A DNA stretch of 64,000 nucleotides from an uncultured Hyphomicrobiales bacterium (GTDB lineage: Bacteria > Bacteroidota > Ignavibacteria > Kapaibacteriales > UBA2268). The stretch spans positions 23,811 to 87,810 of the forward strand of contig CAZSWR010000002.1 of assembly GCA_964610885.1 (NCBI GenBank), written 5' to 3'. Made by a program: the position numbers and the translations under genes. The notes under the pieces are model-generated. The model searched no databases. It was not told the origin of the DNA and worked only from the letters and a program-made list of their open reading frames with translations. Below are positions 10,233 to 62,392 of this stretch, piece after piece. Every line of letters starts with the position of its first letter. The stretch's first letter is position 1.

Positions 10233-10298
10233 GCGAGAAGTGTTGCTATTATTTTCAGTATTTAGTCTCAGCAGCCGACAATAACTTCGTAATAAACT

Positions 10299-10325
10299 GT
10301 AGGGGCGGGTTCCAAACCCGCCCAC
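10299..10325. repeat. REP palindrome GTAGGGGCGGGTTCCAAACCCGCCCAC
   Basis: Imperfect 27-bp palindrome just downstream of the T9SS cargo gene. It belongs to the GTAGGGG...CCCCTAC family. Confidence 0.85.
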
Positions 10326-10447
10326 GGCATATTATTTATATTGATTTGTACAATAGGTTCCTTCACAGAGATTAATGGCTCTATTTCGCTTTGTTAGGGT
10401 ACTCCATTGGGCTATTTAACTATTAGAAAATCATAGCATTACCTGAA

Positions 10448-10474
10448 GTAGGGGCGAGGTAACCTCGCCCTCAC
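10448..10474. repeat. REP palindrome GTAGGGGCGAGGTAACCTCGCCCTCAC
   Basis: Same GTAGGGG end as the other REPs, with a different GC-rich core. Confidence 0.8.
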
Positions 10475-10605
10475 TTTTGTATTATTACCCAAAGAAAGAA
10501 TTCTATGCGTTTTAGTGTTATTTTTGGATATTCAACAGCGTTTAAGCACTTCTTTCAGAAGACAAACATCATCATATTATCACATCTACACATTAGCAAA
10601 TCATT

Positions 10606-10630
10606 GGGCGGGTTTGGAACCCGCCCCTAC
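10606..10630. repeat. REP palindrome GGGCGGGTTTGGAACCCGCCCCTAC (inverted orientation relative to 10299)
   Basis: The complete CCCCTAC end is on the right side, mirroring the copy at 10299. This resembles a BIME-like pair. Confidence 0.85.
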
Positions 10631-10704
10631 ATCTCTCGTGTTGCATCACATCAGCTAATTAACAAATCCCAGGGCAGATTATTAATAGTCAGCGTTAATG
10701 ATAA

Positions 10705-11832
10705 CTATTCTTCTGTTTCCAGGTTGGGCACGGTTAAGAAGAAAGTGGTGCCGGTGGCCTCTTCGGAAGTGAAACTGACGGTGCCCTTCAGGTATTTTTC
10801 TGTAAAGAGTTTAATCGAATAGGTTCCAATGCCGCGGCCTGCGCCTTTGGTCGAGAAAGATTTCTGGAAAATCTGTTGCTTGACTTCGTCGGGCATGACT
10901 TTAGAGTTATTGACGCATACCTCGAGATGGCCGTTTTCGACAGCCGACGAGATTTTGACAGTGCCGCGAGGCGCAACGGCTTCGAGCGCATTTTTCAGCA
11001 GATTCGAGATCGTTCGGCCGAGCAAGGTGCGGTCAGTATTAATGACGGCATTTTTAGATATTTCTTCGTATATGATCGTACAATCCCTGGCGAACTCGTA
11101 GTGTTTGTTAAGATCAATAATTTCTTTAATAAATTGCCTAATATTAATTTCGGAAACTTCCAATGCCAGTGTGCCCTTTTCGGCGGACAGAAGCTGCCTT
11201 TGGTTTCTGATTTCGTCGATCAATTGCCGGGAGGCCTGAGAAAGCATAGATGAATACTCGTCGTATTCTGGGGGCAGTTCCATTTTCAGTATTTCGCCGA
11301 TTGATTGGATCCCCGAGGCTGTATTCATAATATCGTGGAAGAAAACCCGTTCGAGCACTTCGCGGCGTTTTTCATTGCTTATGTCTGCCATCGCAAAAAT
11401 TATAAAATCGGAACCATTCTTTTTGAATGGGGAAGAGGTTACACGAAGAGTAAGCGAATTCCCATCTAATTGGGTCATTCGGCATTCTTTGGAATTCTCG
11501 ATTCCGTTCAGTCCGGTCAGGATCGACACCAGAGCACCGCAATACTTGCATCCTTCCGTCGTACCGCATCCGACGCCTCCTTCGGTCCTGACGCAGCCAA
11601 ATATTTCGCCAGGCCGGTTGCCATAGAGTTCGCTGCGGTCTTCCAAATCGAACAGATTCATCAGAGCTTTATTGATAAAAACCGTTTGACGATTGCTGTC
11701 GAGTATCATTATCAGATCGGGTATTTTGTCGAAAAGCAATTGAAAATATCCATCCTGCCGGAAAATAGAAATTTCTTTTTCCAGAATTTCTGGAGCTGTC
11801 CGCGAGAGCAATTCTTCTCTTATGATATCCAT
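10705..11832 (-). CDS. Cytoplasmic PAS sensor histidine kinase with a Cx8Cx5Cx2C motif
   Basis: N-terminal PAS-like region containing FGCVRTEGGVGCGTTEGCKYCGA. H-box FFHDIMNTASGI. HATPase motifs NLLKNALEA and GRGIGTYSIKLF. No hydrophobic TM segment is visible. Confidence 0.85.
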   Translation of the reverse strand: MDIIREELLSRTAPEILEKEISIFRQDGYFQLLFDKIPDLIMILDSNRQTVFINKALMNLFDLEDRSELYGNRPGEIFGCVRTEGGVGCGTTEGCKYCGALVSILTGLNGIENSKECRMTQLDGNSLTLRVTSSPFKKNGSDFIIFAMADISNEKRREVLERVFFHDIMNTASGIQSIGEILKMELPPEYDEYSSMLSQASRQLIDEIRNQRQLLSAEKGTLALEVSEINIRQFIKEIIDLNKHYEFARDCTIIYEEISKNAVINTDRTLLGRTISNLLKNALEAVAPRGTVKISSAVENGHLEVCVNNSKVMPDEVKQQIFQKSFSTKGAGRGIGTYSIKLFTEKYLKGTVSFTSEEATGTTFFLTVPNLETEE

Positions 11833-11891
11833 TTTTTTTCTTTCGATGTCAAAAAAATCAAATTAATAAACGAATATTTTTGCTTGATATT

Positions 11892-12836
11892 TTACCAGAG
11901 CGAAAATCCGAGGGATACCGATGCGAAAAGCCCACTGAAATCATCAACCTTTTTTGTGGGCAACAGGTATCCGCATGTAGCTGAGATATTCAGATTCCTA
12001 TTCGAGTAGCACCACACGCCGACTTGTGGATTGAAGAGGAACAGGCTGCCGATTTCCCGTTGGTTGATGCCGCTCAGCTCGACGCCATAGAAAGGAATCA
12101 AATACGAACGGTTTACGTTCCTCTCGAATGAAACCTGCATGCCTAAGCCGTATTTGAATGCGACGCCGAGGCTGTCTTTGTTGGATTCCATATAATCGAA
12201 ACGAAGGAATAGTTTCCCGAGGCAGGGGCCTTTGTTGTCGTTGTGGTGCGCCCACGATACCAAATCGAACTGAATGTTGCCGCCTTTGAATGTGCCATAG
12301 TCTGATTTGTTCTTTGGCGCAAAATAGGTGAACCCGACATTCGGGATGAAACTGGTTGTCCAATCGTCCACGATGCGAATCCTGAGGGGGACCTCTTCGG
12401 TGTGGTATTTGCTGGAAACCTTGATTGTGTAATTATAATCGCCGAGTTCGTCCGAGGTGGCCACCCAAGAGAAACAACGCATTTGCTTGTTGAACCGTAC
12501 ATTTCGCGGTTTTGGAGTGATTGAACATGTAAAACTGTCCAGGTTTCGCGTATAGCAGCCCTGCATCGAATTCTGCATATTAGTTTCATCTTCGTCGAAA
12601 TTAAAAAATACTTCGATAGGCCTGTCGATAGAGCAAAACATAATGGAATTGGCATTGTAGTTCGTGCGGCCATAGAGCGAGTAATACTGATTAGGCGAAA
12701 TGCTGATCGAGAATTCCTTCCTCAGGCATTCCGAATTGTTCGCGGGTTCTTGATCGTTATCATTTTTCTGAGCAAAAGCGAAAGAACATGCAGCAAGGAA
12801 CAAAACAAGAGATACAATTAGCAAACGATTCTTCAT
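11892..12836 (-). CDS. Hypothetical secreted / outer-membrane beta-barrel-like protein
   Basis: ATG at 12836 gives the signal peptide MKNRLLIVSLVLFLAACSFAFAQ. The C-terminus ...SVSLGFSLW ends in an aromatic residue, as OMPs typically do. No recognised family. Confidence 0.45.
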   Translation of the reverse strand: MKNRLLIVSLVLFLAACSFAFAQKNDNDQEPANNSECLRKEFSISISPNQYYSLYGRTNYNANSIMFCSIDRPIEVFFNFDEDETNMQNSMQGCYTRNLDSFTCSITPKPRNVRFNKQMRCFSWVATSDELGDYNYTIKVSSKYHTEEVPLRIRIVDDWTTSFIPNVGFTYFAPKNKSDYGTFKGGNIQFDLVSWAHHNDNKGPCLGKLFLRFDYMESNKDSLGVAFKYGLGMQVSFERNVNRSYLIPFYGVELSGINQREIGSLFLFNPQVGVWCYSNRNLNISATCGYLLPTKKVDDFSGLFASVSLGFSLW

Positions 12837-13409
12837 TTGGATTTCCACCGGAAAGTTTCAAAAACACAATTTCAATAGAACAAATTACAAAATATCGATT
12901 GAATTCGCCAGATAAAAAATGAAAAAGTGTTTTCGAGGAGAACGGTGCTATACAAAACAAATATCAGCAAAGACACAAATACCACAACCAACAGATTATC
13001 TGGTGTTATGGGTAGTTTTATACACATTCTTTCGTTCTACAAATGTATTATAAAACAAGGGAATTAGTTTGAAGCATAACCTAACATAAAAATTAGGAAC
13101 GAGATGACGGATATTTTATATAGAAATAAATAAACGTGTTGTGAAAATGATGCAGTTCATATCTTGTTTGAATGATAGTGCATTATTAAATCGAGGCGAA
13201 AGGAGTAACGATAAAAAAAAATGGTATTAAGAGGTGTTTTGAAGTAATTTTATTTTTTTATTATGTATTTAATAGTTAAATTAAATTGTTTAAAAAAATG
13301 AAATATTTTTTTCGTTTTTGTAAATAAAATATATTTATATACGTTGTATGAACTACAGCATTTCTTGAAATATTTTTGATGTATTTACCAAAGAAGGGTG
13401 AAGTGTTTT

Positions 13410-13868
13410 ATGGGAAAAAAAATCGATTCACTACGCCGGGGCGGATTTTTAATAGCAAAAATCCACCAGCTCTCCGGAAGAGTCTTCGCTCGCAAATTGA
13501 AGGAGCAAGGGGTTCTTGAAATCAATCCATCGCAGGGCCGAATCCTTTTTGCCCTCTGGGAGCAGGACAATATTCCGATAACAGAGCTGTCGCACCGCAC
13601 TCAGTTGGAGAAATCAACCCTGACGAGCATGCTCAACAGGCTCGAGCGAGAGGGATACGTCGAGAGAGTGCGCTCCACGGACGACAAAAGGAAAATTTGC
13701 ATCAGAAGAACCAAGAAAGACAAAGCGTTCCAAAAGTCTTACTTAGAGATTACTGATAGCATGGCCAAGCTAATCTATCAGGGACGCTCGGCCGAAGAAG
13801 TCAACCAATTCGAAGAGTTCCTCTCGAAGGTATTGGAAAACCTCGAAGAATACGAAGAGACCAGATAG
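13410..13868 (+). CDS. MarR-family transcriptional regulator
   Basis: Winged-HTH pattern LFALWEQDNIPITELSHRTQLEKSTLTSMLNRLEREGYVERVRSTDDKRK. Confidence 0.85.
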   Translation: MGKKIDSLRRGGFLIAKIHQLSGRVFARKLKEQGVLEINPSQGRILFALWEQDNIPITELSHRTQLEKSTLTSMLNRLEREGYVERVRSTDDKRKICIRRTKKDKAFQKSYLEITDSMAKLIYQGRSAEEVNQFEEFLSKVLENLEEYEETR

Positions 13869-13926
13869 GACAATCATTCGCCCGCGATAGGCGAATGATT
13901 TGTATTAGATGGAGGTATTTGAATAA

Positions 13927-13968
13927 AGAGAACTAATCCGCAATGCTTTGCGGGTTGTTCTCTTTTTC
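13927..13968 (+). terminator. Rho-independent terminator after marR
   Basis: AGAGAAC...GTTCTCT outer stem with an inner CCGCAA/TTGCGG stem, followed by a T-rich run. A second hairpin (AATCATTCGCC/GGCGAATGATT) lies at 13872-13901. Confidence 0.6.
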
Positions 13969-14079
13969 TTTTGCTTCAAGTATGAACAATTTTCGCTGGC
14001 GAGCAAAAATCAATCCCGCCGGCGCCGCCTTTTTTCTTATATTTGCACTGATTTGAGTTCTGTGAATTATTATTTTTTA

Positions 14080-14787
14080 ATGAATATGTTACTTTTCGCA
14101 ACAAAACTAATAATGATTGCCGTCTCGACGGTATATTATTCGCTGAGTGTGCTCTTCCTGCTTGCCCGGAAAAAGTCTGGGGACGACGTTTATAACGAAA
14201 TTGTGAGGTGGTCCGCTTCACTGCTGCGGATCACAGGTGTGAAGATAGATGTTACGGGCCTGGAGAATCTGCCGGATGGCGAATCGTTCGTGTTTATGCC
14301 GAACCATTCGTCCTTGTTCGATATTCCGGTATTCCTGTGTGGCATCGGCCGGAAGACATCGATTATCTACAAAAAGGAGCTTGAACGGGTGCCGATTTGG
14401 GGCTATGCGCTCAAGAAATCGCCGTTCATCAGCATCAACCGTGCGGACGCCCGCGAGGCAATGGGCGCGATGGAAGAGGCGGCTCGCAGCCTGGACGAGG
14501 ACGCATCGATTCTGATTTTTCCGGAGGGGACGCGGTCAGAAGACGGGCGCTTGGGCGAGTTCAAACGCGGAGCTTTTATGATGGCCGGATTCACAGGGAA
14601 GCGCATTGTGCCGGTTACGCTGATTGGTACGGCAGAAATTCTGCCCCGAAAAAAATATTTTTTCAAGAGTGGAACTGTTCGTTTCATAGTCGGCAGTCCG
14701 CGGGAAGTGCCTGATAAAAAAGACCGTTTGGCCGAGAAGGCCTTAATAGCAGAGCTTCACGAAGAAATAAAAAATAATTTACCATAA
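14080..14787 (+). CDS. plsC: 1-acyl-sn-glycerol-3-phosphate acyltransferase
   Basis: HX4D acyltransferase motif NHSSLFD and FPEGTRS motif. ATG at 14080 precedes the N-terminal TM helix. The track start at 13948 runs through the terminator and was not used. Confidence 0.85.
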   Translation: MNMLLFATKLIMIAVSTVYYSLSVLFLLARKKSGDDVYNEIVRWSASLLRITGVKIDVTGLENLPDGESFVFMPNHSSLFDIPVFLCGIGRKTSIIYKKELERVPIWGYALKKSPFISINRADAREAMGAMEEAARSLDEDASILIFPEGTRSEDGRLGEFKRGAFMMAGFTGKRIVPVTLIGTAEILPRKKYFFKSGTVRFIVGSPREVPDKKDRLAEKALIAELHEEIKNNLP

Positions 14788-14842
14788 AAAAAGTATTTGG
14801 TAGATCGGAAAAAAGTTCGTAATTTTGAATTCTAAGTTCTTT

Positions 14843-14915
14843 GGTCAGGTAGCTCAGTTGGTAGAGCAGTGGACTGAAAATCCACGTGTCGGCGGTTCAA
14901 ATCCGTCTCTGACCA
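14843..14915 (+). tRNA. tRNA-Phe (anticodon GAA)
   Basis: A cloverleaf can be read by eye. Acceptor GGTCAGG/TCTGACC, D-arm GCTCAGTTGGTAGAGC, anticodon stem-loop GTGGA-CTGAAAA-TCCAC, T-arm GGCGG-TTCAAAT-CCGTC. CCA is not encoded. Confidence 0.95.
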
Positions 14916-14928
14916 CAACACAAAAATA

Positions 14929-14957
14929 AGCCTCCGAAATTCGAGAGGCTTTTTTTT
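14929..14957 (+). terminator. Rho-independent terminator after tRNA-Phe
   Basis: GCCTCCGAA/TTCGAGAGGC stem followed by T7. Confidence 0.8.
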
Positions 14958-15517
14958 ATGTCTCCCCGCATTAGGACTGAAACCCATTCTAAGTAACACA
15001 GCATTCTGTTCATATTACTATTGATATTCAGACGTTGCAAGCATTCATCGGCAGTGACTGCTAAAAATAGAAAAAAAATTTATATTACTGTGAAATTATT
15101 ATTTGTATTTAATAATAAAATATTTGTATGTTTGTATTAAAGTCAATTGATATAGTAGAATGTGATTTCGTTCATCGGTGTTAGCACCGGGTATTGAAAT
15201 AAAGACCTCCCCCAAAGAGAGTATTATGGTACTCTTTGCTGGTACACAAAGTGGTTGTTCGGAAAGCTATACGTAGCCGGTAACGACTACTTCGCGAATC
15301 TTTTGTATGCAGTGACGGGAGTTCCTAAGCGAGCTACAGTGCGAGTAGGGGAGATGGAATGGGAGAGGCAGGGGAAGTGGAGGGAATATGAAATAAATCA
15401 AATCCATAGTAATTATCAAGTTATAAAGCTGACCAGTGAATTAGTTGTTTATGTGAAGGGAATGGCGTCTACGAAGTGGTGAATATTAATATTTTTAAAA
15501 TAAATTAGAGAATTGAA

Positions 15518-16084
15518 ATGATAGAATTTTGGAAATTATTTTCTGAGGAATTATTTAACAATCTTAATTTATTGAGGAATGGTTGGTTTTTAAGATATTA
15601 TGATAAGTCAAAATTTACTTATCATACAATAAATAGTATTATTCCATTTGTTGGAAAAAGATTAGGGCTTGAAATAGAATCTGAGTTAAGATTACCTGAT
15701 CATAGTAGAATAGATTTTGTATATGGTAGAAATATTCATAATCGTTTTCAAATTAATTTTGCAATTGAACATGAGAATGAATGGGATTCTTGGTATGAAG
15801 AATTACTAAAACTCTCAGAATTGAATTTGGATATAAAAAAAGTGCTAATATCATATTACCATTGGCGTGATGAAAATATTGATTGTGTAAAGCATAACAT
15901 ATTATATAATTGTAATCCCCAAAGACTTAATAAAGATTTCCTTTTTATATTTGGGCCAGGTGAGTTTCCCAAAAATGATCTTGGAAAAAAAAGTGTAAAA
16001 GATCAAGATTACAAAGCATTTGTATTTAATGGAACTAAATTTGAAGATTTAGAAGATATTCCAATATTAAGAAATCTTAAATAG
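15518..16084 (+). CDS. Hypothetical protein with a possible restriction-endonuclease-like core (islet gene 1)
   Basis: 188-aa ORF with strongly AT-rich codon usage. The segment HSRIDFVY...(16 aa)...FAIEHENE resembles the D...E-x-(K/E) strands of the PD-(D/E)XK fold. The family was not recognised. Confidence 0.4.
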   Translation: MIEFWKLFSEELFNNLNLLRNGWFLRYYDKSKFTYHTINSIIPFVGKRLGLEIESELRLPDHSRIDFVYGRNIHNRFQINFAIEHENEWDSWYEELLKLSELNLDIKKVLISYYHWRDENIDCVKHNILYNCNPQRLNKDFLFIFGPGEFPKNDLGKKSVKDQDYKAFVFNGTKFEDLEDIPILRNLK

Positions 16085-16194
16085 AAGTAATATATGATTA
16101 TTTGAAAATTCCGAAGCCATTTGCTTGATTATGATTATTGAGTGGCTGCATCTCTCATATTTATTGATTAATTACAAACTAACTGGAAAATGAA

Positions 16195-17388
16195 ATGGAA
16201 AAGTTAAAACTGTTGGAAGAATATTCAAAAATATCAAATGAACTAAAAGAGAACATGCTATACAATCTTTCTAAATCTTCGAAAGAACTCTTTCATAGCG
16301 ATTTTATATGCTGGCTTATAAACAAATATCCAACGGCTTTGAGGAGGATGTTTGAGAGAGTATTGGACAAAGAATTGAAAGATTTTTCAATTTGCCAAAG
16401 AGAAAAAGATAGGTTGGATCTTTCCATTTGTGGCATCAATAATGATCCTAATTTCAATCCCAATTCCAATATGCTTTTAGTTATTGAAAATAAAGTCAAG
16501 AGTTATCCATATAAAAATCAATTAATTAAATATAACAAGACATTAGAAAAAGAATTAAATGTAGAAAAAATTCTTCTGACATTATTTAACCCGACACAAA
16601 AAGATAGTATTGAAGGTTGGACTGTCGTCGAATACAAAACACTATTTAACAAAAACAATTGCAAGGAATTATTAGAATCGGCTACTCAGAATGACCAATA
16701 TATTATCAATCAATATTTGGATTTTTGGAACAATATGCAATTGATTATTAAATATGTAAATATGAATGATTCTTTTGCTTTGTTCGACAGGGATAATAAA
16801 ATATTTACTACACTAAATGATATTGGCCTGGGTTACAACTATATAAAAATATGTTACTTGGATTTAAGTTTTAAAGTATTTGAATCTTTGAAAAAATCCT
16901 CGGATGTTACTTCTGCAATTCTTACAGAATCATGGTTGGTCGAGAAAGGTGCGTTCAATGTCTCTTCTTGGTTCACCAATAGAAGCAATCAACCATTAGT
17001 TGATATAAACTATTGCATTGAGAATAAATCAAAAAGTCGTGGGTTTGGTGTTCAATTACAAGAAAGAGGTTTTAAATTATATTCAAACACTTCACAAGGA
17101 CAAATCGAATTGCCACTAAATGTATTAAAAGAGCTGTTGAAAACAATTCAAGAAAACAATAGTGATCTATTTGATGAAACAGTGAGAAACATCGGACAAA
17201 GAGAATCTTCTAAATCAAACAACACCTACAAGTATGTAAAGTTAAATCTTCGATCTGACATTACCGTAGAGCAAGTTACGAACCTTATGGTGTCTTCAAT
17301 GCTGCTATTATACAATGACTACATAGCTAATAATTATAAACGCGAAAAAATACAACCAATAATTGGCAAAATTTCTACTGATAATTAG
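16195..17388 (+). CDS. PD-(D/E)XK nuclease superfamily protein (islet gene 2)
   Basis: 397 aa. The N-terminal pattern ELFHSDFICWL...RLDLSI...LLVIENKVKS...QLIKY (H, D, ExK, QxxxY) is typical of PDDEXK-type orphan nucleases. The C-terminal ~230 aa are unassigned. Confidence 0.6.
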   Translation: MEKLKLLEEYSKISNELKENMLYNLSKSSKELFHSDFICWLINKYPTALRRMFERVLDKELKDFSICQREKDRLDLSICGINNDPNFNPNSNMLLVIENKVKSYPYKNQLIKYNKTLEKELNVEKILLTLFNPTQKDSIEGWTVVEYKTLFNKNNCKELLESATQNDQYIINQYLDFWNNMQLIIKYVNMNDSFALFDRDNKIFTTLNDIGLGYNYIKICYLDLSFKVFESLKKSSDVTSAILTESWLVEKGAFNVSSWFTNRSNQPLVDINYCIENKSKSRGFGVQLQERGFKLYSNTSQGQIELPLNVLKELLKTIQENNSDLFDETVRNIGQRESSKSNNTYKYVKLNLRSDITVEQVTNLMVSSMLLLYNDYIANNYKREKIQPIIGKISTDN

Positions 17389-43976: not shown

Positions 43977-46256
43977 ATGAGAAGCTTAACAAAAGTATTG
44001 GATGTTAACAAAGAGAAATGTATTAATTGCCACCAGTGCATCGCGGCATGTCCGGTGAAATTCTGCAACGACGGCAGCGGGGACTATGTAACGGTTAATC
44101 CCGATATGTGTATCGGGTGCGGTAATTGCATCACGGCCTGTACGCACGACGCGAGAATCGGAATTGATGATTATGACAAGTTCATGGAAGCTGTCAGAAT
44201 GCGCGTGCCAATGGTTGCTGTTGCAGCCCCGGCAATTGCTGCTAACTTTCCGGGCGATTACTTGCGGATTAACGGCTGGTTGAAATCAATCGGCGTGGAA
44301 GCTGTTTTCGACGTGAGTTTCGGTGCGGAGCTGACCATTAAATCTTACCTCGATGCCATTCAGAACAAAGGCGTCAAAACCGTAATCGCGCAACCCTGCC
44401 CGGCCATCGTTACATATTGCGAGATTTACCAGCCGGAGCTGCTCAAGAACCTTGCGCCGGCCGATTCGCCCATGCTTCATACGATCAAAATGGTCAAACG
44501 TTTCTACCCAAAATATGCGAATCACAAAGTAGTTGTCCTTTCTCCTTGCTTCGCAAAGCGTAGGGAATTCGACGAAACTGGGCTTGGCGATTTCAACCTG
44601 ACTTATCAATCAATAGCCAAACACATCAAGGATAATTCAATTTCTTTGGCGTCGTATCCTGTAACTGATTACGACAACACACCTGCCGAACGTGCTGTGC
44701 TGTTTTCGACGCCAGGCGGGCTTATGCGCACGGCCGAACGTGACGTGCCCGGAGTCATCGAGAAAATCCGCAAGATCGAAGGCGTTGACCACATATATCA
44801 TTACCTGCACGATCTGGACAAAGCCATAGGCGGCGGTTATGCACCGCTTATCGTCGATTGCCTCAATTGCGCACGCGGTTGCAATGGCGGGCCTGCGACT
44901 ATTGCAAAAGACAAGCCTCTCGATTGGGTGGAGCATTCGATCGAGCAACGTAACATTGAAATGCAGCAGCGCTACAAAGAGTCCAAGGCCGAATTCGCTA
45001 CAATCGGCGAAGCAATCGACAAATACTGGGAACCGGGGCTGTACGACCGCACGTACATTAACATGAGGGAGAATTATACAGTTAAGAAACCCAGCGCCAG
45101 AGAATTGGAAGATATTTATGCCCATATGCTCAAAGCAAACGAGCAGGATTACCTGAATTGCTCCGCTTGCGGATATGGTACATGCGAAGACATGGCAATC
45201 GCTATATTCAACGGGCTGAACAAAGTCCAGAATTGCCACCACTACCGCCTGCGCGAATTGGAGACCGTTTCGAACGTCATCGATCAGGAACTCAACAAAG
45301 CATTTACAAACCTGCTTCGCAGCAGCGAAGACCAGCAGCACTCCGTCGAGGAAATGTCCATTGCCATTAAGCAATACATCGGCACAGTGAAGGAAATGAA
45401 GAACATTATTCTCGAGCAAAACACAAGGGTTTCATCGACTTCGAGCGCAATGACCGAACTGACGACCAGCTTCGACCATATTTCGCAAACCGCCAATTTC
45501 GCTGCAAGCAAAACAAACGACAACGTACGCGCTGCCGAGGACGGACGCAAGAAAGTCGGGAAAGTACTCGAAAAGGTTGATGAAATCGATGACAGTATGC
45601 AGAGCATTAATACCGAGATTCACAACATACTTACGCTTACTGAAAAAATCGAGAAGATGCTCCGTTCCATCAACGACATTGCAAGCCAGACCAACCTGCT
45701 CGCGCTCAATGCGGCTGTCGAATCCGCCAGAGCCGGCATACACGGCAAAGGTTTTGCAATCGTGGCAAACGAAGTGAAAAATTTGGCTTCTCGCACATCG
45801 AACCTAACAAAAGAGATTGCCGAAGTCATCGACAATATCAAGAAAACTGTCGAAAATGCAGTTAACGTTACCGACAATGGCATCAAACTCTCGAAGGAAA
45901 GCCGCGGAGTGGCCGACCAAGCCGACCACAGCATCAACAAGATTCTGGGCATGATTAACGATATCAACGAAATGTTAGCGAATATTTCTGACATTACGAA
46001 CGACCAAAACGTGGCCTCGAAGGACGTATTGAAAAACACTGAAGAGCTGACCGTGCTGGCCCAAGGGACAAGCGGCGCACTCAAGGATCAGGTGTCTGCA
46101 ATCAACCAAATCATTATCTCATTCAAATCAGTTCGCGAAATAACCGAAAAGAACACTGAGATCGCTAATGAATTGGCAAGTGTATCGAACCACCTTAGTG
46201 AAACGCTCGAAAGAGTTGTCGATAAACATGTGGCATCGCTCTCGGAGAACAATTGA
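43977..46256 (+). CDS. Soluble methyl-accepting chemotaxis protein with 2x[4Fe-4S] ferredoxin + [FeFe]-hydrogenase-like (H-domain) + Cx2Cx4Cx16C input module
   Basis: Ferredoxin motifs CINCHQCIAACP and CIGCGNCITACT. H-domain-like motifs AQPCPAIV, SPCFAKRRE and DCLNCARGCNGGP. Cys 395/398/403/420. MCP hairpin tip QTNLLALNAAVESARAGIHGKGFAIVANEVKNLA. No TM or HAMP segment is seen. Confidence 0.8.
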   Translation: MRSLTKVLDVNKEKCINCHQCIAACPVKFCNDGSGDYVTVNPDMCIGCGNCITACTHDARIGIDDYDKFMEAVRMRVPMVAVAAPAIAANFPGDYLRINGWLKSIGVEAVFDVSFGAELTIKSYLDAIQNKGVKTVIAQPCPAIVTYCEIYQPELLKNLAPADSPMLHTIKMVKRFYPKYANHKVVVLSPCFAKRREFDETGLGDFNLTYQSIAKHIKDNSISLASYPVTDYDNTPAERAVLFSTPGGLMRTAERDVPGVIEKIRKIEGVDHIYHYLHDLDKAIGGGYAPLIVDCLNCARGCNGGPATIAKDKPLDWVEHSIEQRNIEMQQRYKESKAEFATIGEAIDKYWEPGLYDRTYINMRENYTVKKPSARELEDIYAHMLKANEQDYLNCSACGYGTCEDMAIAIFNGLNKVQNCHHYRLRELETVSNVIDQELNKAFTNLLRSSEDQQHSVEEMSIAIKQYIGTVKEMKNIILEQNTRVSSTSSAMTELTTSFDHISQTANFAASKTNDNVRAAEDGRKKVGKVLEKVDEIDDSMQSINTEIHNILTLTEKIEKMLRSINDIASQTNLLALNAAVESARAGIHGKGFAIVANEVKNLASRTSNLTKEIAEVIDNIKKTVENAVNVTDNGIKLSKESRGVADQADHSINKILGMINDINEMLANISDITNDQNVASKDVLKNTEELTVLAQGTSGALKDQVSAINQIIISFKSVREITEKNTEIANELASVSNHLSETLERVVDKHVASLSENN

Positions 46257-46302: not shown

Positions 46303-46336
46303 AAAAAGCCCCCGAAATTCGGAGGCTTTTTTGTTT
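46303..46336. terminator. Bidirectional terminator between the convergent chemoreceptor and gdh genes
   Basis: AAAAAGCCCCCGAAATTCGGAGGCTTTTTTG: a stem flanked by an A-run and a T-run. Confidence 0.75.
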
Positions 46337-47645: not shown

Positions 47646-48072
47646 AACGATTCTCCATTAAACAAATTTATTAAGGACAAATTACTATAAAACGTCCTGA
47701 AAATTAATTTCGCAAAAGACACCTTTTGCAAATGCAATTTATCGGAAAGTTATTGAAAAAAAAAGATATTTTTTATTTTTTTATCAAATTTACGTTTTAT
47801 GTGTTAGTGCTTATATGTTGTGCTTCGGTGCGAATCCTTGGCAAGTGCGACTTTCGACGTCCCGCCCAACCATGCCATCGCTCATGTGTTTAGCAGATTC
47901 CAAGTACAGAATGATTCAGTTTGAGCGCTATCATTCGGAAAATGAAATTTTAACTCACGCTGGTTGGACATTTGTTTTTGCAAACCTTTGTATCTGAATT
48001 GATTTTTAAGTGTATATTATATATGAAATTCGTAAATTGCAATTGACGACTTTGAAAACTGGAAAAAATATT

Positions 48073-51000
48073 ATGAAGGTCTTTATTAGCAAGGCGATTC
48101 TGTTTTTTTGTTTGGGCTTCGTGTCTGCCTTTGGTGCGAATGTCGAGATCACATCTACCGATCGCGGAGTTGCGTACTCACATTCGGGAATCGAATGCAG
48201 AACCACTGCTGGTGGCTTAAATCTTGTGAATGCCAACTGCTTTATTACACCTCTCGGCAGCAATGGATTATCGTTGGACGAAATTCGATTCGTCGTAGCT
48301 GTCCCGGCATCGTATCGCCCAGAGCCGGTTTCCGTTGAATTTCAAACTTCAACACTGTCTGAATCGGCTACCGAGGCAATTCGCGCAAATCATTCGAAGG
48401 GTACTGGGCAATCTTTCACACTGTTGGGGCGCACTCCTCAGTTGCGATTCGAGGAGCTGGGATCGAGGAGGGGAGTCCGACTTCTGCTTGCGAAAGTATT
48501 GCCGTACGCAATCGATAACGATGGCCGCCCTGTGCTGATTTCGAGCCTTTCGTTCCAATTGGATTTTGGTATTGCTATGCACTCTTCTGCGGCGCCTGGC
48601 AGTATTGCCGAATTGTTTGCCTCTTGCGAAAACATTTCTCAATTGCCACAGTTACTCCAATTGGCCGCTCGGAACGATAAAAAATCGGTTTCGCCCCAAG
48701 CCGCTTCGTTCAATCCTAAGGACACAGCTTGGTACGACGGCCGTTTGAATTATGCTAAGATAATCACTAAGCAAGACGGTATTGCATTCGCCACTGGCGA
48801 TTCGATTATCGCGGCCCAGCCTGCATTTGCCGGTGCCGATTTGCGCCACTTGAGGCTGCTCTACCGCGGGAAAGAAGTGCCATTCGCCGCAGTGCCGGAT
48901 TCTGCCAAGCTTTCGTCATCGACTAAGATTTACTTTCACGGTATTCATTGCCCATCGGATACTGCTTGGTTCGACTATTACACAGACGAAGCGGTTTATT
49001 TCCTCGAATTCAATGAGGATTCTGTTCGCATTCCGCTGAGGCATTTCCCGAGTGTTGGAATTGGCGACCTGACTAACGGCGTGCAAACCGCTGTGCATCG
49101 GGAGAAGGATGCTATTTATTTTCATTTAGACGATCCATACAATACAGAAACCAGCCCGGCAGAAAACTGGTACTGGCTTGGAATGGATCCATTAAGCAAC
49201 CCTAATATTTACGATACAATTGATTTCCATCCGATGCATGGCCAGAATTACTTGCTTTCGGTCAGGCTCGGATCTTGGTATTGCGACAACGAAAATAGTC
49301 CCTATTCGCATCGATTGGGCTTCTATTTAAACGGCAACAAGGTTCTCGACACTCTTCTGCCGTTCAGGCCTCGGCACACCATTGAGTGCATACTGCCGGA
49401 TTCACTTTTCAAAAACGGAACAAACTTTATAAAGTTGTCATCTCTCGGGCTGAAGGACGATACTGGAACAATTATCGCAACAGATGTCCTGGCTCTTGAT
49501 TATTATGAAATCAAAGGCATGGCAGCCACGGCGACACGAAACGGCATATTCTTCGGCGATATTGACAAAAACAGTGAGCCAATTTCAGTAAATATAACCG
49601 GCGTCAGAGAGAATACTGCTTACGCAATCGATTCGCGAAATCTGTTTTTCGGTTCCTTCCCAACCCATGGCGACACTTTGGAGATCCATCTGCCATCGTC
49701 CGAATTCGGATATTCCATTATCGCATCAGGGCCGCAACTTATGGAGCGTGCTACTGTCCGGCGTGTGGCCAAAACTTTCCTCAGAAGCGAATCGATGACT
49801 GCCGATAATATTATTATATACCACGAGAATTTTTCCCAAGCTGCGAACAAATATAAAGAATATCACGACGCAAACGGCACAGCTACCGTGGCCATCAATA
49901 TCGATGACATCTACAAAGAATACAGCTATGGCAAGAAAAATCCGTGGGCCATTCGATACTTCCTTCGCGACGTGCGTTCTCGGTGGGCCATGTTCCCCGA
50001 GTACCTTACTATTTTGGGCGGCGCCTGTAGCGACCCAAGAAAGGTCCTTCTGGGCACTTCGAATATTGATTACGTTCCTGCTTATGGAATGCCTTTGAGC
50101 GATTACTGGTATTCGTTGCTCGACGAAGACTCTGGATCGAACCTGTCTTCGATATTAATCGGGAGAATTCCCGCAAGGACCAACCAAGAGGCTGAGGACT
50201 ACTTGACTAAATATATTTACGTGGACACTCTGAAGTCGCAAAACTGGGAAAACAATATGCTTTTTATTTCCGGTGGTTACGGCCCGGAGCAACGCACGCG
50301 CTTCCGTACTGTGCTAACGTCGGGCTACAACAGCATGATTGCCCGCGATTTATGCGCAGATTCAATCACATTCTCCAGGTACGACGACGAATCGTCTGAG
50401 TCCCAAGGGGCCATGATACGCGATGTAATCAACCAAGGAACAGGAATAATCATGTTCGTCGGCCATGGCTCGCCAAAATACATCGACAACGACGGTTGGC
50501 AGGTGCAGAGGCTCGGGAATACTGGCCGTTTTCCGCATTTGCTCACGGTTTCGTGCAACACTGCCGATTTCGCAATATCCAGCGGGCGTTGCCGAAACGA
50601 CGAATATATTATGGACAAGAACCTTGGTTGCATTGGTACGATGGGATTCACATATTTGAGCCAAGTCAGTTCGGATTATCCGATTGCAAATAATTTCTTT
50701 TCGTTGCTTGCCGACAGGAAAAGAAAATCCTCAACTTACGCGGGACTGCTCAACGATCTGAAAGACAAATTGGGGCCGGAATACAAATACTACATCTCTA
50801 TGATTCTCGCATATCTTGGGGATCCGCTTTCCAAAATCCGTTACGCCGAGACTGATTTATTCTTTCCCACCAATACTGTTCGCGCCTCGAACCATACGAA
50901 CCAAACCGACCTTTCGGAGTTCGATTCGACGGCATTCGTAGATTTCGATATTACAAATCTGGGCTTCCGGCCCAATGCCCGATTCCGAGTGATGGCAATT

Positions 51001-53412
51001 CGCCGCACCGAAGCAGTAACCGACACATTATATATTTATCCCGAAATGGGCTGCCATTCTGCTTCGCTGAGTTTTCCTTTTCCCATCAGAGACATGAAGG
51101 GCCGGCACTATCTGACGATTGTCATCGATCCGGATTCCTTAGTACCGGATAAAGACCGCAGTAATAACAAGCTGAACACATTCTTCGATGTATTGCCCAT
51201 GGGCATACTAATGCTCGACCCGATTAGTAATTTGGATGTGGACCCCGATCGGCCCATAATAAACTATATTAGGCCCAATCCAACCGATACAAATAGTACA
51301 AAGATAATAATTACTAATGCCCTAACTGGCGATACTGTTATTACTTCGTCCCAGGGCGAAATTTCTAACCATGAACTCTTCAGCTCGTGGTCCTTACTGA
51401 AAAGGCTATCGACCGATTCGCTCTATTATCTGGATGCTTATAGCTCCGGCGGCACGGCAATCGAAAAACATACTCTACATATGCCATTCCATGTCGGAAA
51501 GCAATTTTCGTCTCAATACGCCAATTGGAAGAGCTTCTCGGCGGACCTTGCAAACAATTCTCACGAGAATTTGATGACGGACGGGAACCACAATTTGATT
51601 TTCGATACCATACGCGCACCCTTCTCGATTACAGCCGCCGCATGGGATGCCGATTCGAATTGCCACAGATTGGAAATTGTTTACCGAAACAAGACTCTTG
51701 TCGAAATTTCGCACGAGGGCGCCAGGCCTCGCGGTTTCAATATTATCACGATCGACGGGCGGACCTTGGAGGCGAAGAAATATGTAAGATTCGACACTTG
51801 GGGGGACGACTTAGCGCCCGAGAATGACTCCACTGCTATCAGATTGGTGGCCTACCTGCGCGACTCCATTTCCCGAGATGATTATATGTTTATCGGGACA
51901 TGCGACGAATCCTTCCGCCTAACGTTAGTGGACAAGAATTTGCATCGTAGCGGCTCCATAGACACACTGAAAACAGTCCTTGCCGCTTATGGCCTTAGGG
52001 ATGTCGATTCATTAGGATTCAAGGCCACAGTGGCCATGGTGGGCAAGTGGAATGCAGCACAGGGAGAATTGCCTCAGTACGTCGAGAAAAACTTTGGCAA
52101 AGTGGCCAGGATTCAAGGTATGCTGAAAACGCCAATGATGAACGCAAAAATCATTTCGAAGATTATTGGGCCGGCCCAATCGTGGAAGGACTTCTCCATG
52201 ATCGGCGATCTGGACGACCCGCTCCTCGAAAAAAGAATCGTGATTAAGGGCCTGGACAAGGATAAACTCAATCCCGTTATTCTTGTAAATGAAATAAATA
52301 CTCTTTCGGTTCCATTGGATTTAGTCCAAGGGAAAGATTTCCCATTCATACAGGCAGAAATTGAATTATCTAAAGCATCAGATTCGGCCCGCGCTGCGGT
52401 GAGCGCTCTCGATTGCCAATACGTCTATTCGCCCGAATCGGCAATTTCAGCTAAGCTGTCCGGTTTCGTTTCCGATACGGTGATGAAAGGCGATACAGCA
52501 ACCATCAAACTCCAGATTTGGAATATTGCACGCAGGGCTTCGTTCGAACCACTGTCAACACAATTGGCTCTCGTCTCCGGGAACGTTACGCATTTTAAGG
52601 TGATTTCTTCAATCCAAAAGCTGCCTGCGCTGTCGTATCTTTCCTATGAGAGAACGATACCAACTGATTTTCTTTTAGGGAATTATAGCTTACAGGTGCA
52701 CACAGACTCTCCGGCAGATGAGACCGAACTCTACCTGTTCAATAACTACCTAAGCCTGCCCCTGTATGTGGCTAATGATACGGAAAAACCGAAATTGAAA
52801 CTGATGATTAACGGCAAGGAAGTGGCCGATGGCGATTTCGTGCCGAAATACGCAACCGCGCGGGTGGAACTCCGCGACAACTCGGCAATTCCCGTGAACA
52901 AAGACGAAGCCGTTTCGATTCGACTGAATGGATATATTCTTTCCGACTCGAACACTGACAGCTGGGCCGTTAAAGATTACGGGCACTCTCGGCCACTGAA
53001 ATATGAAGTCGGTTTCTCCAAGATGTTCAGCGTGAATGATAACATCATAGAAGTTGTGGGGATCGATGCGGCAGGCAACTCGGACACACTGACAATGAGG
53101 TTGTGGGTGTCTCGCGATGCTTCGTTTGCCGAAGTTGAGGCCTATCCCAATCCTACGCCTGGCGATTGTTCGTTTGAATTCGACCTGAAAACTCCCGACG
53201 CCGAAGGTGACTGCAATATTGAAATCTTCGATATGATGGGCAAGAAAGTGCGCACAATCGATGCCGCAGCAGTGTTGGGACATAACAAGGTTGTATTCGA
53301 TGGTATGGATTCTGACGGCAACCTGATTCCGCAAGGATTCTATCAATATCGCTTGAATTTGGTTGGCCGATGGGCCGAACCCGTAATTGGTAAGCTGATC
53401 GTCGTGAGGTAA
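48073..53412 (+). CDS. Giant (1779 aa) peptidase C25 (gingipain-like) domain protein with T9SS C-terminal sorting domain
   Basis: Signal MKVFISKAILFFCLGFVSAFG. C25 block IIYHENF...DDIYKEYSYGKKNPWAIRYFL...YLTILGG...IGRIPARTNQEAEDYL with catalytic-type FVGHGSP and LTVSCNTADF. CTD: AYPNPTPGDCSFEF...GFYQYRL...GKLIVVR. Confidence 0.75.
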   Translation: MKVFISKAILFFCLGFVSAFGANVEITSTDRGVAYSHSGIECRTTAGGLNLVNANCFITPLGSNGLSLDEIRFVVAVPASYRPEPVSVEFQTSTLSESATEAIRANHSKGTGQSFTLLGRTPQLRFEELGSRRGVRLLLAKVLPYAIDNDGRPVLISSLSFQLDFGIAMHSSAAPGSIAELFASCENISQLPQLLQLAARNDKKSVSPQAASFNPKDTAWYDGRLNYAKIITKQDGIAFATGDSIIAAQPAFAGADLRHLRLLYRGKEVPFAAVPDSAKLSSSTKIYFHGIHCPSDTAWFDYYTDEAVYFLEFNEDSVRIPLRHFPSVGIGDLTNGVQTAVHREKDAIYFHLDDPYNTETSPAENWYWLGMDPLSNPNIYDTIDFHPMHGQNYLLSVRLGSWYCDNENSPYSHRLGFYLNGNKVLDTLLPFRPRHTIECILPDSLFKNGTNFIKLSSLGLKDDTGTIIATDVLALDYYEIKGMAATATRNGIFFGDIDKNSEPISVNITGVRENTAYAIDSRNLFFGSFPTHGDTLEIHLPSSEFGYSIIASGPQLMERATVRRVAKTFLRSESMTADNIIIYHENFSQAANKYKEYHDANGTATVAINIDDIYKEYSYGKKNPWAIRYFLRDVRSRWAMFPEYLTILGGACSDPRKVLLGTSNIDYVPAYGMPLSDYWYSLLDEDSGSNLSSILIGRIPARTNQEAEDYLTKYIYVDTLKSQNWENNMLFISGGYGPEQRTRFRTVLTSGYNSMIARDLCADSITFSRYDDESSESQGAMIRDVINQGTGIIMFVGHGSPKYIDNDGWQVQRLGNTGRFPHLLTVSCNTADFAISSGRCRNDEYIMDKNLGCIGTMGFTYLSQVSSDYPIANNFFSLLADRKRKSSTYAGLLNDLKDKLGPEYKYYISMILAYLGDPLSKIRYAETDLFFPTNTVRASNHTNQTDLSEFDSTAFVDFDITNLGFRPNARFRVMAIRRTEAVTDTLYIYPEMGCHSASLSFPFPIRDMKGRHYLTIVIDPDSLVPDKDRSNNKLNTFFDVLPMGILMLDPISNLDVDPDRPIINYIRPNPTDTNSTKIIITNALTGDTVITSSQGEISNHELFSSWSLLKRLSTDSLYYLDAYSSGGTAIEKHTLHMPFHVGKQFSSQYANWKSFSADLANNSHENLMTDGNHNLIFDTIRAPFSITAAAWDADSNCHRLEIVYRNKTLVEISHEGARPRGFNIITIDGRTLEAKKYVRFDTWGDDLAPENDSTAIRLVAYLRDSISRDDYMFIGTCDESFRLTLVDKNLHRSGSIDTLKTVLAAYGLRDVDSLGFKATVAMVGKWNAAQGELPQYVEKNFGKVARIQGMLKTPMMNAKIISKIIGPAQSWKDFSMIGDLDDPLLEKRIVIKGLDKDKLNPVILVNEINTLSVPLDLVQGKDFPFIQAEIELSKASDSARAAVSALDCQYVYSPESAISAKLSGFVSDTVMKGDTATIKLQIWNIARRASFEPLSTQLALVSGNVTHFKVISSIQKLPALSYLSYERTIPTDFLLGNYSLQVHTDSPADETELYLFNNYLSLPLYVANDTEKPKLKLMINGKEVADGDFVPKYATARVELRDNSAIPVNKDEAVSIRLNGYILSDSNTDSWAVKDYGHSRPLKYEVGFSKMFSVNDNIIEVVGIDAAGNSDTLTMRLWVSRDASFAEVEAYPNPTPGDCSFEFDLKTPDAEGDCNIEIFDMMGKKVRTIDAAAVLGHNKVVFDGMDSDGNLIPQGFYQYRLNLVGRWAEPVIGKLIVVR

Positions 53413-60826: not shown

Positions 60827-62392
60827 CTATTTACTTCTGATTAGTTCAGTGCCCGGGAATGGCAATTCAGCGTTTTTATTCTTTTGGTAATGAATTCTAT
60901 TGACAAGCGAGCGGGTGGACTGCTCCGAAAGGTTCAGAAACGTATTAGGATTAAGACCAATCCACACAATAAACAATACAATTGGGATCATCATGCTCCA
61001 TTCGCGTGGCGAGAGGTCCGAAAGGTGGTGGTTCTTTGGATTGTCGTTCGTGCCGAACATAACCCTACCAAACATCCACAGCAAATAAACCGCTGCAAAA
61101 ATGACACCTGTCGCCGCTGTTATCGTGAAAGCTTTCGAGCCGAGAGCCTCGGAATTGAACGCTCCGAGCATGGTGAGGAACTCGCCCACGAAGCCGTTCA
61201 AGCCCGGCAAGCCGACAGAAGCGAGCATCGCTATAGCAAAGAATACAGAGTAGGCGGGCATCACTCGGGCCAGGCCTCCAAATTCGGATATTTCGCGAGT
61301 GTGGCGGCGTTCGTAGATCACTCCGACGGCAAGGAAGAGCATCCCCGTCGAAAGGCCGTGGTTCACCATTTGTATTGTGGCCCCTTGGATACCTTCGGCC
61401 GTCAAAGAGAAAATTCCCAAGACGACAAAACCCAAGTGCGAAACAGAGCTGTATGCCACCAGTTTCTTCACGTCTGTTTGAACCATGGAAACGAGCGCTC
61501 CATAGACGATTCCGATCACTGCCAGCCATCCGATATACGGAGCGAACATCCACGAGGCTTCGGGGAATAGATCAATATTGAACCTGAGCAGTCCATAGGT
61601 GCCCATTTTCAATAATACTGCCGCCAGGATGACCGACCCGGGAGTCGGGGCCTCCGTGTGTGCCGATGGCAACCATGTGTGCAATGGGAAAAGCGGAACC
61701 TTGATGCAAAACGATAGAGCGAAAGCGAGGAACAGCCACTTCTGCGTGCCGATAGGGATGGGAGACGAAAAGATTGTGTTGCGAATCAAGACGAAATCCG
61801 ACGTGAAACCATTCGGAAGGCCCGAAGCCGCTCCGGCCCAACTGCCCAACCAGACAATTGCCACGAGCATCAGCAAAGATCCGACCACCGTGAAAATAAA
61901 GAATTTGACAGTGGCATAGATTCTGTTTTCGCCGCCCCAGATACCAATAATGAAATACATCGGTATGAGTATGATTTCCCAAAAAATGTAGAAAAGGACT
62001 AAGTCCAAAGAAATGAATACGCCGATCATTGCAGTTTCGAGCAGCATCAGCAGCGAATAATACTCCTTGTGGCGCTTGCTAATCGAACCAAACGACGACA
62101 ATACCGCAATCGGTATAATGAAAGTCGTTAGCAAGACGAGTAGCAAAGACATACCATCGATTCCAGTACGGAAAGCAATATTGAATTCCGGAAAGAATGT
62201 TGATTCACTAAAGAATTGGAACCCAGGGTCGGCAGGATTGAAATCAACCAGCAGGAAAAGAGAAACAATAAAAGTGGCAATAGACGACGCCAGAGCCAAA
62301 TTCTTTATCAGGCCTATTGAATTACGGTTAATTGCAAGTATTGCCCCGAAGGCCACGAGCGGAAGAATTAACGTAATATGTAATGTAGTCAT
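60827..62392 (-). CDS. nuoM: NADH-quinone oxidoreductase subunit M
   Basis: 521 aa. FYIFWEIILIPMYFIIGIWGG, HTWLPSAHTEAPT and LVAYSSVSHLGFV. Confidence 0.9.
   Translation of the reverse strand: MTTLHITLILPLVAFGAILAINRNSIGLIKNLALASSIATFIVSLFLLVDFNPADPGFQFFSESTFFPEFNIAFRTGIDGMSLLLVLLTTFIIPIAVLSSFGSISKRHKEYYSLLMLLETAMIGVFISLDLVLFYIFWEIILIPMYFIIGIWGGENRIYATVKFFIFTVVGSLLMLVAIVWLGSWAGAASGLPNGFTSDFVLIRNTIFSSPIPIGTQKWLFLAFALSFCIKVPLFPLHTWLPSAHTEAPTPGSVILAAVLLKMGTYGLLRFNIDLFPEASWMFAPYIGWLAVIGIVYGALVSMVQTDVKKLVAYSSVSHLGFVVLGIFSLTAEGIQGATIQMVNHGLSTGMLFLAVGVIYERRHTREISEFGGLARVMPAYSVFFAIAMLASVGLPGLNGFVGEFLTMLGAFNSEALGSKAFTITAATGVIFAAVYLLWMFGRVMFGTNDNPKNHHLSDLSPREWSMMIPIVLFIVWIGLNPNTFLNLSEQSTRSLVNRIHYQKNKNAELPFPGTELIRSK

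Follow-up and report, generated by a model that had tools for sequence, protein, structure and literature searches.

[FeFe] hydrogenases of the M2e and M2f types (groups D and C, respectively) are putative sensory enzymes which lack the cysteine at position 299 and carry a C-terminal Cx2Cx4Cx16C motif (PMC8163306). The C299 position is occupied by an alanine both in TmHydS from Thermotoga maritima (group C, M2f) and in TamHydS from Thermoanaerobacter mathranii (group D, M2e) (PMC10407848), and when the latter enzyme is supplied with [2Fe]adt, a full H-cluster is assembled in spite of the missing C299 (PMC8163306); its Km for H2 is low (PMC8163306, PMC10407848). In the HydDB classification (2016; Sondergaard, Pedersen & Greening), the [FeFe] group C2 is named 'Chemotactic (putative)', with the proposal that H2 is sensed and the signal is passed via an MCP (methyl-accepting chemotaxis protein) (PMC5037454), and the label has been reused in later genome annotation and mining (PMC9431212). 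No characterised bacterial receptor for H2 was found in the literature searched. The gene described here lies at positions 43977..46256 on the plus strand of a 64,000-nucleotide stretch of DNA (the window; positions 23,811 to 87,810 of contig CAZSWR010000002.1 in assembly GCA_964610885.1) from an uncultured bacterium of the Kapaibacteriales, and encodes a soluble MCP whose sensor is of the [FeFe]-hydrogenase type. By its architecture and sequence, the protein is assigned to the HydDB group C2 type; the type itself is not new, the member is.

Architecture and class of the protein

The open reading frame (ORF) encodes 759 amino acids plus a stop codon, and its parts, all read on the plus strand, follow each other in the order of two ferredoxin-type [4Fe-4S] motifs, an H-domain, an 86-residue linker, the Cx2Cx4Cx16C motif and an MCP hairpin. 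In Pfam, Fer4 and Fer4_7 matches cover residues 10-59 (44004..44153), which hold the two ferredoxin-type motifs (C15/18/21/25 and C45/48/51/55) of the F-domain, and Fe_hyd_lg_C (PF02906) matches residues 79-306 (44211..44894) with 112.9 bits and an E value of 2.4e-32 at a cut-off of 22.1. The linker (44895..45152), as delimited by BLAST alignments to other HydS types and by an AlphaFold2 (AF2) model, leads to the C-terminal cluster domain (45153..45236), where PF04060 'FeS' matches residues 393-420 with 27.7 bits (cut-off 23) and C395, C398, C403 and C420 (nt 45159-45236) have the exact Cx2Cx4Cx16C spacing. Finally, MCPsignal (PF00015) covers residues 515-692 with 129.9 bits and an E value of 1.1e-37. 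Neither HAMP nor PAS was matched anywhere in the 759-residue protein in Pfam up to E = 1, and no transmembrane segment is apparent, the Kyte-Doolittle 19-residue mean peaking at 1.22. Each of the 120 best homologs in the database, which are 42-60% identical to the protein and come from at least six phyla, combines PF02906 with PF00015.

The fold of the N-terminal half is that of the [FeFe]-hydrogenase large subunit. In the AF2 model, built on 72 family members, the sensor half has a pLDDT of ~90-97, and a Foldseek search of the PDB with it puts [FeFe]-hydrogenases in all of the top 50 places, with CbA5H first (E value 5e-17). Clostridium pasteurianum CpI aligns over residues 5-263 (E ~2e-20), and the best NCBIfam models are likewise [FeFe]-hydrogenase subfamilies, every one of them scoring far under its cut-off. 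The Pfam score, the CpI alignment and the Foldseek hits thus place the N-terminal domain within the [FeFe]-hydrogenase superfamily, where the original prediction, made from the letters and a list of ORFs, had put it. That prediction had also described two four-cysteine ferredoxin motifs ahead of an H-cluster-like region, three motifs of that region at residues 138-145, 189-197 and 294-306, the exactly spaced C-terminal cysteines and a canonical MCP hairpin with no transmembrane, HAMP or PAS segment, all of which are borne out at the positions given; its statement that Cx2Cx4Cx16C marks sensory hydrogenases agrees with the literature on M2e and M2f (PMC8163306).

Within the superfamily, the sensor resembles the sensory types most closely. 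It aligns end to end (residues 6-436, including the linker and the C-terminal cluster) with two HydS proteins of the same genome, one fused to a histidine kinase (HK; 30% identity, 171 bits) and one to a PAS domain (27%, 167 bits), which serve here as group C stand-ins for TmHydS, and also with TamHydS (25.5%, 100 bits), the sequence of which comes from the machine-read supplementary information of PMC6984386. The match to group A enzymes, in contrast, is confined to the H-domain at 70-89 bits. In a maximum-likelihood tree with three non-MCP sensory sequences, the MCP-fused proteins fall together in a single clade (UFboot/SH-aLRT 98/96), away from TamHydS and the HK and PAS representatives, and the group A enzymes are separate from them (100/100), which fits the MCP-fused clade being a subgroup of its own. 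TamHydS groups with the HK and PAS types in that tree, on a very long branch (7.3) that makes its placement unreliable.

As in HydDB group C2, for which the same role has been proposed, a sensory-type H-domain and an MCP module are combined here in one polypeptide (PF02906 and PF00015). TamHydS shares the two N-terminal [4Fe-4S] motifs, the lack of C299, the C-terminal Cx2Cx4Cx16C and the replacement of M353 by serine and of M497 by leucine, and is collinear over residues 10-440, but it stops after the cluster domain with no output domain and has alanine at position 299 and E252 as a proposed proton-path residue, whereas an invariant proline and L249 are found here. TmHydS and the two HydS paralogs of the same genome have the same sensor layout and an L1 motif of the form xxxCPAxV, but their output is a PAS domain and/or a histidine kinase; position 353 is glycine in all three and serine here, and position 299 is alanine in TmHydS, threonine or serine in the paralogs and proline here. 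An M2f protein of the TmHydS type was ruled out by the lack of a PAS match up to E = 1 and by the uninterrupted helix that starts at residue 421 in the AF2 model. While S353 is a hallmark of M2e enzymes (PMC8163306), assignment to group D, as S353 and L497 would suggest, was also ruled out, by the BLAST scores, the tree, the fused MCP output and the proton-path residues, of which the group D residues E252 and E289 correspond to L249 and D294. The architecture and the sensory type given in the original prediction stand, and its proposal that H2 or a redox signal feeds into chemotaxis is the one already made in HydDB for group C2.

The H-cluster pocket of the MCP-fused clade

The ligands of the H-cluster are fully retained. 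In CpI numbering, C141 corresponds to C300, a ligand of the [4Fe-4S]H cluster, C191 to C355, C298 to C499 and C302 to the bridging cysteine C503, while K194 and E197 correspond to the CN-binding K358 and to E361, respectively. The four cysteine ligands and K358 are invariant in 120/120 homologs, as are the cysteines of the Cx2Cx4Cx16C motif in at least 119 of the 120, and all eight N-terminal ferredoxin-type cysteines are invariant in 72 sequences.

Around these ligands, the three signature motifs depart from those of the group A enzymes. The L1 motif AQPCPAIV (residues 138-145, 44388..44411), located by the CpI alignment and the 120 homologs, reads [AS]QPCPA[IL]V in the family, with Q, P, C, P and V fixed in all 120, and its P140 occupies the position of the proton-relay C299. 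In the L2 motif SPCFAKRRE (residues 189-197, 44541..44567), placed by the same alignments, S189 stands in place of M353, and in the L3 motif DCLNCARGCNGGP (residues 294-306, 44856..44894), defined by the homolog alignment and the analysis of the pocket, L296 replaces M497. E279 and E282 of CpI align to a gap and the S319 region is Ala-Pro here, so the proton pathway of group A is absent. Since the sensor aligns end to end with sensory types, the divergence of L1 is best seen as a character of the class and not as decay, and a decayed domain was ruled out by the invariant QPCPA and the fully invariant pocket. The original prediction was thus right that L1 is divergent, while its doubt as to whether a full H-cluster is assembled finds no support, as TamHydS assembles one without C299.

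All 22 of the positions which line the H-cluster in CpI are invariant among the 72 family members; elsewhere in the H-domain, the figure is 40/214 (19%; Fisher p 7e-15). Fifteen of the 22 are identical to CpI, among the fixed residues being K358, P324 and F417, which contact only the [2Fe] subsite, and the remaining seven are fixed changes, namely S232A, C299P, Q325M, M353S, V423L, V496C and M497L. Such conservation speaks for a diiron site that is occupied and tuned in a manner specific to the clade. One of the changes introduces an extra cysteine, C295 (nt 44859-44861), at CpI position 496 beside the leucine equivalent to M497; the residue is invariant in 120/120 members, has no equivalent in the group A enzymes or in the two HydS paralogs of the HK and PAS types, and may act in this clade as a proton relay or a redox switch. 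As a whole, the pocket of the MCP-fused clade differs from those of both characterised sensory enzymes, and in the AF2 model the cluster ligand C420 lies at the N-terminal end of the signalling helix.

Signalling hairpin and proposed coupling to chemotaxis

The output half (45237..46253), outlined by the AF2 model, PF00015 and comparison with PDB entry 2ch7, consists of an N-arm (residues 421-585), a tip around residue 586 and a C-arm (587-758). In the model, a single continuous helix of ~165 residues starts at residue 421, straight after C420, and runs to the tip, from where the return helix spans residues 587-758, with no adaptor between the sensor and the hairpin. The best sequence match in the PDB, over residues 456-721, is TM1143 (2ch7; E 4e-28). 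Like the soluble MCPs TM1143 and TM14 of T. maritima (2ch7, 3g67), the protein has a hairpin in the form of a long antiparallel coiled coil, conserved at its tip, and no transmembrane segment; unlike in those proteins, a four-cluster hydrogenase module is fused directly to the N-arm helix. The CheA/CheW-binding region at the tip, LLALNAAVESARAGIHGKGFAIVANEVKNLA (residues 574-604, 45696..45788), was identified by tip comparison and conservation and follows the motif LLALNAAVESARAG..G.GFA.VA.EV..LA, with L575, N578, E582, A586, G587, G590, F593, V596, E599 and L603 invariant.

Mean conservation is high in the H-domain (0.76), the C-terminal cluster domain (0.76) and the hairpin tip (0.81) and low in the hairpin arms (0.40-0.44), which supports a sensor that is agnostic of its output. 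The N-arm is about 100, 153 (in the query protein) or about 180 residues long in the family, so one sensor has evidently become attached to hairpins that differ in length. In the source genome the hairpin equals in length that of MCP_C84 and exceeds those of MCP_C1 and MCP_C3 by 14 + 14 residues. These three other MCPs (C84:5184-8528, minus strand; C1 ~61773-62240, minus strand; C3 ~97561-98028, plus strand) are giant membrane receptors of 978-1114 amino acids with five to six repeats of ~90 residues of the form ...GDFNEIKNNLN...LDAVIGPLNVAAEYVDRIAKGDIPP...; in Pfam, MCP_C84 has one 4HB_MCP_1, one HAMP and six HAMP_2 matches, a poly-HAMP array, and it adjoins a CheW gene. The tip of the query protein (AGIHGKGF...NLASRTS, within 45696-45788) resembles the tips (AGRHGKGF...NLAARSA) of MCP_C1 and MCP_C3, two receptors with shorter hairpins, whereas the tip of MCP_C84 follows the family consensus (AGEQGRGF...KLAERTT), though its hairpin matches the query in length.

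The original prediction had pointed to the chemotaxis genes and the hydE, hydF and hydG maturases as the genes to look for elsewhere in the genome, and both sets are encoded in the source assembly, which is 85% complete. The chemotaxis genes comprise two for CheA, four for CheW and a 321-residue ORF with a CheW domain, three for CheR, one for CheB, a CheZ-like gene and FliG, and are partly organised in two systems, of which one (C44) holds CheA, CheW, CheR and CheB followed by a hybrid PAS histidine kinase/receiver protein, and the other (C74) the CheZ-like gene, CheA and a LytS/LytTR pair. HydE (343.6 bits), HydF (520.5 bits) and two copies of HydG (529 and 527 bits) all score above their curated cut-offs. 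Eight genes have Fe_hyd_lg_C, namely five group A hydrogenases (TSC[CS]PGW), the two HydS paralogs and the MCP fusion, so that, as judged from the predicted proteins, the genome carries all three output types of sensory hydrogenases (HK, PAS and MCP).

Taken together, these features make it probable that the protein is a cytoplasmic H2 chemoreceptor, in which the state of a slow, high-affinity H-cluster would be relayed via the C-terminal cluster domain to the MCP helix and CheA. The neighbourhood of orthologs elsewhere, namely a che operon in Thermospira aquatica and a group A HydA in two metagenome-assembled genomes, also supports this reading, and so do the frequent HydG and the catalytic HydA of ortholog-carrying genomes, all described below. 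From sequence and fold, residues 1-420 constitute a sensory-type [FeFe]-hydrogenase with two ferredoxin-like clusters, the H-domain and a fourth [4Fe-4S] cluster on the Cx2Cx4Cx16C motif, with the [2Fe] subcluster presumably installed by HydE, HydF and HydG. Without C299 and the proton pathway of group A enzymes, turnover is expected to be slow, and by analogy with TmHydS and TamHydS the module would report the H2 partial pressure instead of serving in metabolism. Binding or oxidation of H2 would alter the sensor in its redox state or its conformation, and the change would pass to the helix following C420 across the junction seen in the AF2 model; the hairpin tip would in turn modulate one of the two CheA kinases via CheW and bias flagellar rotation. 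A more tentative proposal, to which we give somewhat less than even odds, extends this to the entire clade, whose members would be direct H2 chemoreceptors with a fixed pocket of their own (Pro299, Cys496, Met325, Ser353, Leu497, Ala232 and Leu423) and a cluster mechanically coupled to the control of CheA.

Several points weigh against an H2 chemoreceptor. In TamHydS the C-terminal cluster stays unreduced under 1 atm H2 (PMC13104023), which makes a conformational signal likelier than a simple redox switch. The chemistry of the cofactor may also differ from that of the characterised enzymes, given Pro299 in place of alanine and the change of E252 to L249. HydE, HydF and HydG would be expected regardless, serving the five catalytic hydrogenases, and in the source genome no che or hyd genes are linked to the gene. 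The fusion was not found in the five same-family and eleven same-order genomes sampled (0/5 and 0/11), and no experimental study of a hydrogenase-MCP fusion was found in the literature searched. Finally, the strict methylation consensus [ASTG]xx[EQ][EQ]xx[ASTG] has no match in the protein, in comparison with 2-5 matches in each of the other three MCPs of the genome and 0-4 in close orthologs; this weakens, without excluding, adaptation by CheR and CheB, the consensus being that of model organisms.

The same features could be accounted for by a different input. The invariant N-terminal ferredoxin-type clusters would also suit a sensor for redox or energy taxis, in which the Fe-S chain, with or without an H-cluster, equilibrates with the pool of reduced ferredoxin and H2 is only one poising couple. 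In all [FeFe] hydrogenases, the two N-terminal ferredoxin-type clusters are the surface sites of electron entry. The cytoplasmic location of the receptor and the five bifurcating-type or group A hydrogenases, which tie H2 to ferredoxin and NADH, are in line with this explanation, as is the finding that under H2 TamHydS reduces its N-terminal cluster and not the C-terminal one (PMC13104023). However, a plain ferredoxin-like domain would suffice for such a task, and the invariance of 22/22 pocket positions, including K358, P324 and F417 of the [2Fe] subsite, points to a diiron site that is used, which makes a general redox sensor unlikely. A still more improbable alternative, on which we place very little weight, is a protein with Fe-S clusters only and no [2Fe] subcluster, in which damage to a [4Fe-4S] cluster senses O2, reactive oxygen species or NO and drives negative aerotaxis in a strict anaerobe. 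Eukaryotic Nar1/NARFL has been reported to be such an Fe-S-only protein. The changes of C299 to proline, S232 to alanine and Q325 to methionine would agree with it, and so would G190, a 99% complete genome of the same class (loci C48:42024-43301 and C14:155439-164618), in which the ortholog is 59% identical and is accompanied by a HydS paralog and two HydA of group A, while only a HydE-like match was obtained and HydF and HydG were not found. The two group A HydA also need maturases, so the gap is probably an artefact, most likely of assembly or of the search, the other option being an unusual maturation in G190; with two catalytic enzymes present, the genome is uninformative as a test of a maturase-free ortholog. 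Moreover, HydG scores above its cut-off in 10/13 ortholog-carrying genomes, two of the three exceptions being small bins of 1.4-1.6 Mb, TamHydS with Ala299, Ser353 and Leu497 binds a full H-cluster (PMC8163306), and the invariant pocket speaks against the loss of the diiron site.

Irrespective of the input, the output might be something other than swimming, with the second Che-like system (C44) controlling gene expression or another behaviour, a possibility that we regard as rather unlikely but not negligible. It would be consistent with the hybrid PAS histidine kinase/response regulator at the end of the C44 system and with the lack of a strict methylation consensus. It would also agree with the operon of Thermospira aquatica (CP073355.1, locus 8001-16788), where the ortholog is the first gene, followed by CheB, CheR, a response regulator-PP2C protein, CheW and CheA. 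Receiver-PP2C phosphatases are typical of Che pathways with alternative functions. The protein in question, a receiver-SpoIIE (PP2C phosphatase) fusion between CheR and CheW, suggests a non-motility output of the partner-switching type in T. aquatica. On the other hand, the source genome has FliG and, beside CheA in the C74 system, the CheZ-like gene, another ortholog (P0003) lies ~7 kb from fliM/fliN/fliO, and the length of the hairpin equals that of the membrane receptor MCP_C84 next to its CheW gene, all of which fits better with the control of flagella.

Should the members of the clade prove to be direct H2 chemoreceptors as proposed above, bacterial H2 taxis would gain its first receptor defined at the molecular level, one that offers a kinase output for the question of how HydS-type proteins signal. 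The MCP-fused members are soluble, consist of a single chain and have a confidently modelled sensor half, and CheA kinase activity and swimming bias would provide a measurable readout of signalling by a sensory [FeFe] hydrogenase. What the present copy adds is a monocistronic example in a Kapabacteria/Ignavibacteria-like genome that also has the HK and PAS versions, together with quantified evidence that the altered pocket of the clade is under strict selection.

Distribution and gene neighbourhood

By source names and loci, the homologs come from Kapabacteria, Ignavibacteriales, Melioribacteraceae, Bacteroidota, Geobacteraceae and other Deltaproteobacteria, and also from Spirochaetaceae, Leptospirales, Brevinematales, Thermospira, Synergistaceae and Phycisphaerae. 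Closer to the source genome the fusion is rare, being present in 1/121 genomes of an even sample of the phylum, the source genome only, and in 2/151 genomes of a sample of the class, the source genome and G190, while HK- or PAS-type HydS proteins are found in 28 other genomes of the class sample. This rarity in its own lineage suggests that the fusion gene has been acquired laterally or retained sporadically. Catalytic HydA is encoded in every ortholog-carrying genome tested for it (G000, G190, G247, G249 and G254), and in one Spirochaetaceae and one Deltaproteobacteria metagenome-assembled genome the ortholog directly follows a HydA gene of group A. Two Deltaproteobacteria genomes of this kind have tandem duplicates of the hydrogenase-MCP gene (L033 3073-7003 and L039 2670-6445), with each copy ~52% identical to the query sensor.

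In the source genome, both HydS paralogs adjoin group A hydrogenase genes, whereas the MCP-fused gene stands alone. The HydS-histidine kinase fusion (C47:2101-4134, a 678-residue open frame with the L1 motif TTTCPAVV) and the HydS-PAS protein (C46:24393-26195, a 601-residue open frame with GSSCPAFV), both outside the window, are directly preceded by a group A/bifurcating-type HydA at C47:3-1628 and C46:22298-24322, respectively. The MCP-fused gene, in turn, follows a gene which we take from reading its sequence to be heparinase II/III-like, and faces a convergent glutamate dehydrogenase gene (gdh) downstream. Between it and gdh lies a terminator-like hairpin with a 13-bp stem (46303..46331), called on the minus strand by the scan and read here as working in both directions in view of the A/T runs that flank the stem on either side. 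The hairpin and the neighbouring ORFs point to a monocistronic unit, and placement in a che or hyd operon was ruled out by the two neighbours together with the hairpin. Further downstream, beyond gdh, an ORF of 1800 amino acids occupies positions 48010-53412 of the window.

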